Part shown: in pieces, positions 22,337 through 27,685 of the stretch
Numbering within the stretch: the stretch's first letter is position 1
Layout: every line of letters begins with the position of its first letter
Assembly: GCA_021432655.1 (NCBI GenBank)
Contig: MU271508.1
Coordinates: 1 to 51,673 of the forward strand
Length of the DNA stretch: 51,673 bases
Source: Atractiella rhizophila
Lineage: Eukaryota
Direction of reading: 5' to 3'
Notes under the pieces: generated by a model
Told to the model about the DNA's origin: nothing
What the model saw: the letters and a program-made list of their open reading frames with translations, nothing else
Database searches by the model: none
Position numbers and translations under genes: made by a program

Positions 22337-23602
22337 ATGCCCACTCAGCCTCTTCCATCGTCCTCCGAGAAAGGCCCAGACATCCAGTCTCTGGACTACA
22401 TTATTCGCACCGGTCTCGCAGGCGGATTTGCTGGCGGTCTCGTGAGTGCATTTCTGCCCTCTCCTTCGATGGCTTGCCGCTCACAGGTATTTTTCGAATC
22501 GCCTGTAGGCGAAGACCTCGATTGCTCCTTTAGATCGAGTAAAGATCCTCTTTCAAACGAACCATCAAGATTTTGCCAAGTATACAGGCTGGTCCATTCC
22601 TGGTTGCTATCGGATCAATTATGGCTGACCGGGAAGAACAGGGTCATGGAGGGGTATCGGCCAGTCGCTTCAACACATAGTAAAGACCCATGGAATGAAA
22701 GGTCTCTTTCGTGGACACTCCCTTACTCTTGCAAGAACCATACCTCATGCTGCAATCGGGTATACAGCCTACGATCAAGCTAAGGCTGTTAGTCCTCTTT
22801 CTTCAAGTCCTGCCAACATAAGCACTGGCTGACACCAGATATATAGTATCTCATGGCAACCCCAGAGACGCAGACACCTTTCCGCCGTTTCCTCTGTGGG
22901 GTAATTGCCGGTTCGTCTCTGCCATACCTCCCTCTGCTTGCTCATGCATTACCGGTTTGGATAGGAACTGCCTCCCTACCCGTGACCTACCCCTTTGAGC
23001 TCATACGTGTCCGAATGGCTACTGACACACGTCATACGACACTCTCTCCAGTCGCCGCCATCCGATCCATCTATCACGAAGGAGAAGCTCCTCCGCCCTC
23101 CTCTTCCACCAACAACGCAGGAACGGCAAAGCTTGCCGCTAAACGCGCAATTCGACAAACGAGACGCATCTTCCCCATCCTGCAGTTCTACCGTGGCTTC
23201 GCCGTTTCCCTAGTCGGCACCGTTCCCTATCGCGGAGGAATCTTCCTTGTCTGGGAAACACTCAACTCCTTCGTACACGGTCGAATGGACGACAGGATGT
23301 TTCATGAGAACCGCACTCGAATACACTTTGTCCTTGGAGCCATCTCTGGAGCGACTGCTCAGGTGGCAACCTATCCGTTAGAGGTGGTGAGACGCTTACA
23401 ACAGGTCGGTGGGACCCGGAACCCAGATCGGATGATCAGTTTTTGGGAGGTCGTGCAGGAGGTTTGGAAAACGAGAGGGGTAAGAGGATTTTATGTCGGA
23501 CTCGGACTCGGACTCGTGAAACAGGTCCCCATGACTAGTATCAGTTTGACGAGCTATTGGTGGGCAAAGAGGGTATTGGGCATCGATCAGGATGGTCGTT
23601 GA
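22337..23602 (+). CDS. Mitochondrial carrier protein, Leu5/SLC25A16-like (probable CoA transporter)
   Basis: [45 protein letters not shown], FYRGF and TYPLEVVRRLQQVGG: three Px[DE]xx[KR] carrier repeats. Confidence 0.88.
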
Positions 23603-23692
23603 CCCTCATATAGCACATTTTCTTGCAGTGACATGTATATTTATTCCCCCATCCAGGTGCATCAGCCGTCAGGAAAACGCTTTCTTAACATA

Positions 23693-24317
23693 TCACATGG
23701 AGAGGCGAGTCCAGCTCCCACTCCTCCCTCCGCTTTTCTCGACAACCATAATGCCTCCAATCTCCATCTCTCTCCCTCCGACGCTTTTCAACATATCCCA
23801 AACGGTCAATAATGCGGTGCTAACTCCAACCAGAGCTTCCATCTCCACTCCCGTCTTCCCTTCACACTCCGCCAGGCACTTTGCATGTAGCACCCCTGCT
23901 TCCTCATCAAGGTCAAAATCCACAACTACATCCGTCAATCCAACCGAATGACAGAGAGGGATGAGGGCATCAGTTCGTTTCGCAGCTTGAATACCCGCGA
24001 CACGGGAGACTGTGATTACGTCTCCTTTCTTCGATACAGCGGGATGAAGAAGTGACTGCACAGCAGGAGGAGGGAGACGGATGAAACCCACTGCGACAGC
24101 TCGGCGTATAGAAGACGTTTTGGAAGTGATGGGGGACATTTTGAGGCGACCTGATGGCGAAATATGGGTGAGGCCGTGTGCATCCAATGGTTGTTCTTCT
24201 TCCCTCTCGGGGTTTTGTTCCTTCGTAGTAGTAGCAGTAGAATGAGTGGAATAAGTTCTGGCGTGGCGGAACAGATTTGAGCTAGAGGGTGGATGCAACC
24301 ATGGAAGAAAGGATCGT
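23693..24317 (-). CDS. cPMP synthase (MoaC/MOCS1B) domain, reachable only as a spliced fusion to MoaA
   Basis: LTH...GRLKM, KKGDVITVSRVAGIQAAKRTDALIPLCH, GKTGVEMEAL, LTVWDMLKSV and EKSGGRSG. There is no in-frame ATG before the LTH motif. The frame joins MoaA via acceptor 24318. Confidence 0.9.
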
Positions 24318-25751
24318 CTACCCGCTACTTAGCATCAGCTTCTGTCACTCGAATGGACAGAAGACACACCCAATCCCAACCATCGGCCCACTACGACCGT
24401 TGCGCGCAATGTCTTCAGGCATCGCATGACCGTCGTGCTTCCATTTCTTTCCTTGTAGCGCTCCTTGCACTCTGGTGTAGATCTCTTCATCGGTCGAACC
24501 GTTCCTGAGCAACTCGCGAAGCTGAAGAACTGGTGCACCGAACAGACATACCTGTTTGAAGTTCATCACCATTTGTTGTATGTTGCATTGAAAAGGAAAG
24601 AGATAACGTACCTTCAGTCCTCCATCTGCTCCAACCCGAATTCTGTCACAGCCTGCACAGAAGTGTTCCGTCATACTGCTAATAAATCCTATCCTCCCCA
24701 GGCTCCCATCGATACTCCACACTCTAGTGGTAGCGTGCCTCTCCATTGGGAGTTGGGCGAACGAAGGATGGACTGCCTTGATGCGTTCCTGTAAGACAGA
24801 CGAAGGAACCAGTTTCTTTGTAGACCAGCGATTATCCTCGAATGGCATATATTCGATAAACCGCACTTGTATTGGCCTATCCCGCACGAAAGAGACGAAT
24901 TGGAGCACCTCGGCATCATTCAGACCAGCAATGACGACGCAGTTCAGCTTCACTTTGAATCCTACGGCAACAGCTTCGTCTAGACAGGAAAGAACGGCTT
25001 CAAAGCCTGCTCAAGACCATGAATATAGCATTGAAGATATGAGGTGAACACTCGGACACACCTCGACGTCGTGTGATGAGCTCGAATTTGAAGGGATCTA
25101 AAGTGTCCAGCGAAAGATTGATATTGTCCAATCCTGCATCCTTCAGACTCTTCAGCTTCCGTCGTAAGGCAATGCCATTGCTTGTCATGCCTATCGACTC
25201 TAATCCATTGTTCTTCAAGCTGGCGATCCGATCTAGGTTCCTCTTCGGTTACTTCCACAGTGTTGCAGCGAAGAATATGAAAACCCCCACCCACAATCTC
25301 CACAATGTCCCGACGAATAGTTGGTTCACCACCAGTTAAGCGGACCTTTTTCACTCCTTGCTTAACAAAGAGGTCGGCTAGTTTGTACAACTCGTCCGCA
25401 GTCAGAATGTTCTCCTTAGGAAGGAGCTCAACGCCAGTGTCAGGCATGCAATACGTGCCTGGGCCCCGTAAATGTCTTCAGGTCTCTTGCCACAAGTTCC
25501 AGTACTAAACCCTACATCTGAGGTTACATTTCTCAGTCAAGGAAAGCCGCAGGTATGTGTGCTGACGATTGAAGCTGTCTATCAAGTACGGAGACGTCTT
25601 ATCCAGAGATTGAATGCGTGCCTGTTAGGTCAACAGGAATGAGAATTACTCGATGGCTCGACAAAAACATCAAAAGACGAACTCGTGCTATCTCAGCCAC
25701 CGTGGATGCAGATCTACCGAGAGTCGAAGTCACGCTCCTTATGCTTCGCAT
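24318..25751 (-). CDS. MOCS1: GTP 3',8-cyclase (MoaA/MOCS1A), radical SAM enzyme of molybdenum cofactor synthesis
   Basis: ATG 25751. Motifs [27 protein letters not shown] (CxxxCxxC), [27 protein letters not shown] and FCAGCDRIR...KVCLFG. Intron 24369-24325 gives the canonical C-terminus PMVGIGG followed by TAG (24320-24318). Confidence 0.95.
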
Positions 25752-26233
25752 CTTTCCAAACCTTCGTCCACTAGTACTTCAGTCGACACGAATGTTGCAG
25801 AGGCGACCAAAGCTTGAAGCCAGGCTTGAAGCTGTGATATCCCACTTATAAAGCAAGTCGGGGTGATTCGAAGGAGATCGGCGGGCAACCTAAACGGTGT
25901 CAGCGCAAGAGGAACGCACTGGAGAACGTTTAACACCGCGATTTTCGAATTTTCAGGTAGGAATGTCGATGTTTATGTTTTAGCAGGTTTTGGTGGTCGA
26001 GCAGGATGCATACGAAAGTAGGCACGTGTTCTCATCCTCCCAAGATGATTTTTGGAGGAAGAAGGGAGAATCATACATCGGCATGGGATGAAACAGCAAA
26101 GCACAAAATGATACTGTATTGCAACAGAGTTTGGAAGTGAGTGCTCTCGATGAGAGCTGCGATTCGACCATTCACCTTCCTGCATGAGTCCCTCAGGAAA
26201 GCCGACGATGGACTGTTGTAGGATTGAACCCCG

Positions 26234-27685
26234 TCAAAAGATAGCCATAGCATTCGGAGGCGAAGCCTGTTTACAATAAGCATACATGAGAATGAGGTGG
26301 TAAGCAAGCGGAAGAATAGGACGAACCACATTCCCTTCCACTCTCAAAGGAGCACTGGTGAAAAAGAAGCTCCACCGTTCGTTCCTCTCACATGCGGCCG
26401 AGAGAGCGTCCAGATCCCAAAGCTCTCCTATCGGGCATCCAAAGCCTCCCAGCAAGGATTGTCGCATGGATAGGCCTTTTGTGCCTTCGCCAGCTGGATT
26501 AGGCGCTGCGTCACGGGTCAGCATTCTGAAAGGAAAGAGAAGAATCTATTGGGGACTTGGTTAGACACGGGATAACGTACGCACGGCTTCTATGCTCGGA
26601 GAATCTGTTGCTATCGCTGCGATTCGCTGTTCCCACAGAAGCTTTAAGAGTGCCTCTTCTTGCAAGAGTCCGACATAGCGATCAATCACATCAGCTTCGT
26701 GAAAGATGAGATCCTTTTGATTCTGCATTGGCAAATTCTCGTATTCTCCAGCATGTCCTGCCAACCTCTCATCAGCTATGCTCCTTGAAGGGAATGCATA
26801 CCTGTCCTGATAAGCAATATGTCGCCAGGCTCAACTTTCAATTGCTCTTCATCTAGAATGTGCGCTAGGATCTCAGCGTTGATTGAACAAGATGAGAAGG
26901 CGGAGTACCCGTCGACACCAATTTTCTTTATATATCTCGCAAAATCGACAAGTATTCCGCGGCCAACTATCCCGTGTGGTGCTATCTCTGAAACAATTAA
27001 TCCATCAGAAATTTGCCAAGGGCGGATCAAAACGAGGAAGGGAACCTCTCGCTTCTGGCGCCGCTTTGACGGTGGGAGCTGGGGTGGGAGAAGGCGACCG
27101 TTTGTCTTCCAGCGCTTGGGAGAGTGGGCTGGAAGGAGGGGATGCAGGGACCGTAGCGAATGAGACACCGCCCCAGTCTTTAAATGTGTCAAATCTTCTG
27201 CCAGCAATGATCTAGCAGGGAATCATACCCCAATGGCTGGAAGCCTTTGTATCTGTTTTGCGATTGAGCTGTAGAAGAAGATATGAGCTAAAGACGCACC
27301 GATGCGCAAGGCTTCCTCTACTTCTTCACCTCGGTTTTTAATTTCTTGTCTCATTCTCTTCCTGTTACAATAAGGACTGCAATAGATCAGTTCTTCCACG
27401 GTTTCGTGGCGAGTACAAGAAAGCATACTATTTTGGCATATCCAGCTTCCAATCCAAAGACACAGTTTCGCCAGTCTTGATCGTAGCTGCCGCTTGTGCG
27501 ACAACAGCAGGCGATAAGTGGTTCTGTACAATCGATTAGTTGATGCCTCTTTCTACAGAAGAGAAATGGGAATGTCTGACGAGCGTGCCAAATGCCTCGC
27601 ATTCAGCGAATACCCCTCCCGCATAATGGGGAGTCGGAGTTGAAGGTAGCTCTTCAAATGATGGGAAAGGGTCAGGGATGGCCAT
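26234..27685 (-). CDS. Putative cyclase / kynurenine formamidase-like family protein
   Basis: ATG 27685 (MAIPDPFPSFEELP). Motifs IKTGETVSLDW, GIVGRGILVDF, VEPGDILLIRTG, IAAIATDSPSIE, GCPIGELWDLDAL, RWSFFFTSAPL and ASPPNAMAIF*. Confidence 0.85.

Follow-up and report, generated by a model that had tools for sequence, protein, structure and literature searches.

The window, the whole 51,673-nucleotide stretch of Atractiella rhizophila DNA analyzed here, carries on its minus strand a gene of seven exons (ATG at 25751) in which a MoaA region is followed by a linker and a MoaC domain (Table 1). The organism is one that we take to be a basidiomycete of the Pucciniomycotina. Pfam searches matched the upstream open reading frame (ORF) pieces to Radical_SAM (PF04055) and Mob_synth_C (PF06463), which together correspond to MoaA, and the spliced translation contains the radical-SAM motif CxxxCxxC as CNLRCTYC. 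The ORF at 23693..24328 (211 codons) matched MoaC (PF01967, E 1e-43) over profile positions 1-136 of 136. The MoaC domain lies downstream of MoaA on the same strand and in the same transcript, has no start codon of its own, and is joined to MoaA in the RNA contigs of two runs (X14 and X4), which extend from MoaA exons over the junction and reach the linker. Judged by its domains and their order, the gene is a MoaA-MoaC gene of the MOCS1/nit-7 type.

The five introns other than the last one are 55-61 nt long, and each of them is backed by joints from one to three RNA runs. The N-terminus of the MoaA translation is rich in Arg and Ser, a feature that hints at mitochondrial targeting. Spliced as a fusion, the gene model comprises 571 amino acids and differs from the public A. 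rhizophila fusion protein (P0001) at 4 of 571 residues, three of which lie in the linker. Among the matches listed, the closest one to the MoaC exon was a 571-amino-acid A. rhizophila "molybdenum cofactor biosynthesis protein" (99% identity), and the sole public protein for this gene was the fusion form.

On the plus strand, a convergent neighbor at 22847-23602 encodes a mitochondrial carrier protein (PF00153, E 1.8e-31). Since a 1359-letter contig of X14 runs from the 3' end of MoaC across position 23500 into this carrier gene, the two transcripts may overlap at their 3' ends. An ORF piece upstream of the MoaA-MoaC gene (26779-27222, minus strand) weakly matched Putative cyclase (PF04199, E 1.6e-05).

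Table 1. Features of the MoaA-linker-MoaC gene, with positions counted in the window.
Feature	Position	Strand	Basis or remark
MoaA-linker-MoaC gene (MOCS1/nit-7/cnxABC-type)	23693..25751	-	ATG 25751-25749 to MoaC stop 23695-23693
Intron 1, 61 nt	25622..25682	-	Joint in X14 and X4
Intron 2, 57 nt, splits CxxxCxxC	25459..25515	-	Joint in X14 only, 27 letters on the shorter side; translation
Intron 3, 58 nt	25233..25290	-	Joint in X14 and X2
Intron 4, 55 nt	25007..25061	-	Joint in X14 and X4
Intron 5, 60 nt	24552..24611	-	Joint in X14, X1 and X4
Last exon shared by the MoaA form and the candidate fusion form	24370..24551	-	Ends ATG GTT GGG ATT GG (...PMVGI plus two bases of the first Gly codon)
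45-nt intron, GTGTGT...TAAGTAG	24325..24369	-	Removal gives MoaA ending Gly-Gly-TAG, 365 amino acids
Candidate branch site GTGAC (A24345)	24344..24348	-	20 and 27 nt to the two TAGs; proposed
Candidate branch site CTGAT (A24335)	24334..24338	-	10 nt to the first TAG, 17 nt to the second; proposed
7-nt segment CGGGTAG	24318..24324	-	Last base of Gly364, Gly365, TAG stop
TAG, MoaA stop and candidate second acceptor (AG 24319-24318, 52-nt intron)	24318..24320	-	Sequence
Linker, 48 residues, from the junction Gly (completed by 24317) to LTH	24173..24317	-	Translation; no in-frame ATG
R-T-Y-S in the linker	24259-24248	-	29 residues before LTH
MoaC domain, LTH to last codon	23696..24172	-	PF01967, E 1e-43

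Two TAGs at the last intron

The donor of the last intron (ATT GG|GTGTGT) splits the first codon of the terminal double glycine of MoaA, 24370 being the last base of the exon and G24369 T24368 of the minus strand the first two of the intron. This donor, two TAG acceptors that delimit introns of 45 and 52 nt, and the motifs GTGAC and CTGAT had been pointed out in an earlier note, and reading the minus strand located every one of them where it had been placed. From the first TAG (24327-24325), the exon restarts at 24324 and reads GG+C, GGG, TAG, i.e., I-G-G-stop. From the second TAG (24320-24318), it would restart at 24317 and read GG+A, CGA, TCC, i.e., I-G-R-S-F-L-P-W, so that the segment 24318..24324 belongs to the exon in the MoaA form and would make up the 3' end of the intron in the fusion form. 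The public model P0001 reads ...MVGIGRSFLPW and accordingly treats this segment as intron (52-nt splice). ORF analysis and translation agreed with the earlier note that the 52-nt choice is in frame with MoaC, the frame being open through 207 codons to the MoaC end with a product of 571 amino acids, and that the ORF 23693..24328 contains no in-frame ATG before the LTH motif of MoaC.

After the 45-nt splice, MoaC sits in the +1 frame relative to MoaA. The MoaC frame is shut by a TAG at 24331-24329, four codons above the second acceptor, and 24317 is the nearest exon start past Gly-Gly-stop that opens it. Two earlier AGs are in MoaC phase but lead directly into stops, while more open in-frame acceptors follow at exon starts 24281, 24257, and 24203. 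An AAG at 24330-24328, three bases before the first TAG, would as an acceptor give ...IGSG-stop, and the unspliced reading of the last intron has no Gly-Gly end. As the 45-nt splice is required to create Gly-Gly-stop, active MoaA depends on splicing and not on intron retention. Read-through of the stop codon was rejected as a route to MoaC, which is one base out of frame after the 45-nt splice and cannot be reached in this way. An alternative donor (ATG|GTTGGG) was likewise rejected, as inspection by eye revealed no AG in the right phase for it.

In NAGNAG tandem acceptors, two closely spaced AGs compete downstream of a single branch site. The two acceptors of such a pair differ by 3 nt and keep the frame, whereas the Atractiella pair differs by 7 nt, a distance that changes the frame and removes the stop. 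Candidate branch sites in two other introns of the Atractiella gene lie 14 and 16 nt from the used acceptor, and in intron 3 AGs at ∼7 and ∼9 nt from the candidate branch site are skipped; the AAG described above lies 7 nt from CTGAT. Compared with this spacing, both TAGs of the last intron appear to be at a usable distance from a candidate branch site and could compete. In the samples seen, the first TAG wins, as judged from the RNA contigs.

Assembled contigs of four RNA runs (X14, X4, X1, and X2) were placed on positions 23500-25900, and contig depth was not used to rank isoforms. The 45-nt junction 24370^24324 was found in the contigs of two of the four runs, as CT..AC on the plus strand and hence GT..AG on the gene strand. 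In X14, it is carried by one contig of 985 letters (depth 71.8, shorter side 69 letters), in which four other introns of the gene are spliced too, and in X4, a root metatranscriptome, by one contig with a depth of 3.58 and a shorter side of 56 letters. Its presence in RNA-derived contigs of two of four runs sets the 45-nt splice apart from a chance pattern. An mRNA whose MoaA part ends in Gly-Gly-stop thus occurs in both runs, as the earlier note had predicted for the acceptor at 24325. In this main assembled mRNA, removal of the 45 nt completes Gly-Gly-TAG and yields a MoaA of 365 amino acids with the double glycine that it needs.

The 52-nt junction 24370^24317 was found in none of the four runs, and junctions to the exon starts 24281 and 24257 were also absent from the contigs of all four, absences that count as weak evidence because contigs may drop rare forms. 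X1 spans the junction unspliced (24239-24389). Since other introns of the gene are unspliced in X1 as well (25490-25885), we read this form as pre-mRNA or DNA and rejected it as a specific retained-intron isoform. The X2 contigs do not reach the junction. The X14 assembly preserved minor joints elsewhere in the gene (depth 8 and 13.2 beside 34.6); because it retained these other splice alternatives, the fusion form is probably not abundant in X14 and at best rare there, or else the 7-nt difference was merged away.

The minor joints of X14 concern exon 2 and intron 2. An extra joint 25517->25567 inside coding exon 2 leaves out 49 nt with GT..AG ends on the gene strand; a second one, 25458->25567, has only 'AT' in between and corresponds to a 2-nt micro-exon; and a loose end points to a third acceptor slightly inside intron 2. 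These extra joints (25459-25567, minus strand; depth 8-13 vs. 34.6 for the normal one, shorter sides of 24-27 letters) delete the CxxxCxxC region and shift the frame, and may represent unproductive splicing.

At the protein level, neither a fragment with the fused junction nor one with the junction of the 45-nt form was found in a large protein collection. A near-identical fragment of linker and MoaC was not present among proteins of 113-363 amino acids at E <= 1e-40, a cut-off at which a diverged MoaC paralog would escape listing, and no near-identical linker fragment was present among proteins of 39-126 amino acids.

The linker, other fungi, and known MoaA-MoaC systems

The linker contains the sequence R-T-Y-S, and the corresponding pattern R-x-[FYL]-[SAT] was found in 37 of 50 fungal linkers vs. 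11.7 expected from shuffles, mostly 17-30 residues before LTH. We take this pattern to resemble the R-3 site of the mitochondrial processing peptidase. On this reading of the sequence, the motif fits a precursor from which MoaC is cut. Overall, the linker is far more variable than both enzyme domains. X14 contains two versions of the linker region (24128-24285) with depths of 72 and 50, one of which has five differences from the window, four of them altering a linker residue; only the change from E to Q is common to the public protein P0001. In X1, the first linker codon (24315) is changed from R to Q. The organism or the sample carries at least two alleles.

Among the 120 proteins listed, 57 were fusion models, of which the 50 with the motif PM[IV][LG]I (from Rhodotorula, Microbotryum, Mrakia, and Exidia, among others) were counted and the 7 without it left out. 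These 50 models are predictions, are not independent, belong in many cases to close relatives, and come in several cases from single genera, so that the following counts describe a pattern and not a statistic: the residue after PM[IV][LG]I is D in 22, G in 16, A in 6, V in 5, and E in 1, which are exactly the residues whose codons begin with G, and Gly-Gly is kept in only 3 of the 50. Such a rule is expected if gene callers across the Dikarya end the exon inside the first Gly codon and skip Gly-Gly-stop.

A scan of metagenomes with an alignment of 26 fungal fusions kept 80 loci, 32 of which had a MoaA part as judged by tblastn. Nearly all of these loci are uninterrupted bacterial-type moaA/moaC arrangements or MoaA-only ORFs, and each of the three uninterrupted MoaA ORFs inspected ends in IGG-stop; no basidiomycete genomic relative was found among the 80 kept loci. 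The corresponding locus of Ustilaginomycetes (P0004, P0053, P0068, P0083) is annotated in two ways, either as a fusion of 870-900 amino acids with Gly-Gly kept in frame or as a separate MoaC of 430-440 amino acids that starts from an ATG in a very long acidic linker. This arrangement may match neither the Neurospora type nor the Atractiella type.

Probst et al. are said to have dealt with nit-7 of Neurospora crassa in 2014, and Gray and Nicholls reportedly described human MOCS1 types I, II, and III in 2000. According to the available part of a more recent study (Wajmann et al., 2020, PMC7232280), the unspliced nit-7 mRNA gives NIT-7A, with Gly-Gly and the stop inside the single intron, and the spliced mRNA (deletion 1460-1696) gives NIT-7AB with an inactive A domain; in the nit-7 constructs, the donor is 1459|1460 and the CDS 1-1467. 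The B domain of NIT-7AB is freed after mitochondrial import, and separately expressed NIT-7B neither complemented nor arrived in the mitochondria (PMC7232280). The description of ascomycete genes as simple fusions, on which the earlier note had relied, is therefore outdated, as nit-7 uses a splice switch.

As far as the available part of that study goes, nit-7 and the Atractiella gene are alike in being single MoaA-linker-MoaC genes with an intron that interrupts the first codon of the terminal Gly-Gly, and in having one mRNA that ends MoaA at Gly-Gly-stop. The fusion mRNA of nit-7 loses Gly-Gly and the stop, and its equivalent in Atractiella would be the candidate 52-nt splice. In contrast, Gly-Gly and the stop form the first 8 nt of a 237-nt intron in nit-7 but lie at the 3' end of the 45/52-nt intron in Atractiella. 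Active MoaA is accordingly made from the unspliced mRNA in N. crassa and from the 45-nt-spliced mRNA in Atractiella, where a Gly-Gly-stop at the 5' end of the intron, with the unspliced mRNA encoding active MoaA, was not found. The extra variant of N. crassa results from a second donor, whereas the Atractiella choice is between two acceptors 7 nt apart.

For human MOCS1, the available part of Mayr et al. [quoted passage not shown] The reported shares are 41% for type I and 55% for type III, and MOCS1B is never translated alone; in MOCS1AB, the signals for import and for cleavage lie in the linker, and the B domain is set free (10.1101/429183). The same source states that the double glycine of MoaA is essential (Hänzelmann, 2002, as cited in 10.1101/429183). 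While the human switch, as described there, is a cassette exon 9, the Atractiella candidate is a 7-nt acceptor shift in which the stop codon would supply the AG.

The cnxABC locus of Aspergillus nidulans encodes MoaA and MoaC domains and is described as having one transcript for a two-domain protein, and we know of no documented splice switch for it. It was once discussed as bicistronic, as mentioned in the available part of Wajmann et al. (PMC7232280). The same source lists plant CNX2 and CNX3, the same two enzymes, as both mitochondrial and encoded by two separate genes (PMC7232280). Plants with their separate genes need no switch.

Because N. crassa nit-7 and human MOCS1 both switch at Gly-Gly/stop, the principle of the fungal switch is not new. 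The earlier note knew of no description of such an animal-like arrangement in basidiomycetes; for fungi as a whole, an animal-like switch has already been published with nit-7. Our literature search found no paper on a MoaA/MoaC splice switch in basidiomycetes or Atractiella. A search for tandem acceptors with a stop codon in fungi returned nothing relevant.

How one gene may supply both enzymes

A splice that skips the stop is the best explanation of the locus because MoaC lacks an in-frame ATG before LTH, and its frame does not open until the 3' end of the intron. We consider it quite likely that some such splice makes the MoaA-MoaC fusion. For the more specific reading that the last intron is the switch and that the fusion is made via the 24317 acceptor in a minority of transcripts, we estimate a probability of about 0.6. 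One gene would then supply both enzymes that make cPMP, which is the first step in the synthesis of the molybdenum cofactor. In the 45-nt form, MoaC lies behind the stop, untranslated and one base out of frame. In a minority of transcripts, the next AG, that of the TAG stop 7 nt downstream, would be used, which would delete the second Gly together with the stop and shift the frame by one base. The product would be a fusion of 571 amino acids consisting of MoaA without Gly-Gly, the linker, and MoaC. By analogy to NIT-7AB of N. crassa and human MOCS1AB, this fusion would serve only for the delivery of MoaC to the mitochondria, where MoaC would be cut off within or near R-T-Y-S of the linker. The proposal of the earlier note that both enzymes are made through a 7-nt tandem acceptor has thereby received RNA support for its first half, the 45-nt junction in two of four runs, and none for its second, the 52-nt junction having appeared in none of the four.

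The fusion might also be made through an acceptor further downstream, with the exon starting at 24281 (after CCACCCTCTAG) or 24257 (after CGCCACGCCAG), an 88- or 112-nt intron, and a shortened linker, in which case the TAG at 24320-24318 would merely be a stop codon. Both sites have the MoaC phase, open frames, and pyrimidine-rich contexts, and the contigs lack the 52-nt junction. However, their own junctions are equally missing in all four runs, the spliceosome would have to skip two TAGs that are closer to the candidate branch sites, the 112-nt intron would delete R-T of R-T-Y-S, and the public model picks 24317 and neither of these sites, all of which makes this explanation unlikely. Slightly less probable still is that there is no fusion at all, and that translation of MoaC begins behind the MoaA stop of the 45-nt-spliced two-ORF mRNA (reinitiation, a non-AUG start or internal entry) or that MoaC comes from a separate internal promoter. 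The two-ORF form is indeed the only one that was assembled, and the bicistronic interpretation of A. nidulans cnxABC (available part of PMC7232280) also speaks for it. Against it stand the missing in-frame ATG before LTH and the fungal linkers, which carry a presequence-like cleavage motif and no start codon. It also disagrees with the failure of NIT-7B alone to complement or to reach the mitochondria in N. crassa (PMC7232280) and with the human type I mRNA, whose first ORF alone is translated (10.1101/429183), as far as the available parts of both studies show.

It appears very improbable to us that the gene mainly makes the annotated fusion, with the 45-nt form as a minor or aberrant by-product, even though the only public protein for the gene is the fusion. 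Wherever a spliced contig covers the site, in two runs, it shows the 45-nt form and never the 52-nt form, and a fusion that lacks Gly-Gly would deprive the cell of active MoaA, for which the double glycine is essential (Hänzelmann, 2002, cited in the available part of 10.1101/429183). The public fusion model may be a prediction made without RNA support.

Beyond the use of the 24317 acceptor as such, the two TAGs might represent a regulated, frame-shifting tandem acceptor and at the same time a lineage-specific version of an ancestral switch at the first Gly codon, a combination that we put forward tentatively and regard as rather doubtful. If so, acceptor choice might set the ratio of MoaA to MoaC, for example according to nitrate or nitrogen status, as in the splicing of N. 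crassa nit-7. The switch might then be ancestral to the Dikarya, perhaps even common to animals, and Gly-Gly-stop, located at the 5' intron end in the Neurospora type, might have moved to the 3' end in the Atractiella type.

The principle of making MoaA and MoaC from one gene by splicing is known; what would be new is the two-acceptor anatomy, provided that the second acceptor is used, and the occurrence in a basidiomycete. The difference from the known systems that is seen in both sequence and RNA is the location of Gly-Gly-stop at the 3' end of a very short intron. The public annotation can be corrected, since the deposited protein is the fusion and the assembled RNA encodes the 365-amino-acid MoaA; the practical value is modest and consists in better gene models for molybdenum-cofactor synthesis in basidiomycetes. 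The break at the first Gly codon in the fungal models suggests that the switch is old and widespread, and this rule makes its evolution testable across fungal genomes. The problem to be solved with one gene is that an enzyme needs a free Gly-Gly end and a fusion must lack that end. If our main reading is true, Atractiella would represent a third solution to it, besides exon skipping in humans and intron retention in Neurospora, and would offer, in compact natural form, a stop codon that doubles as a splice acceptor.
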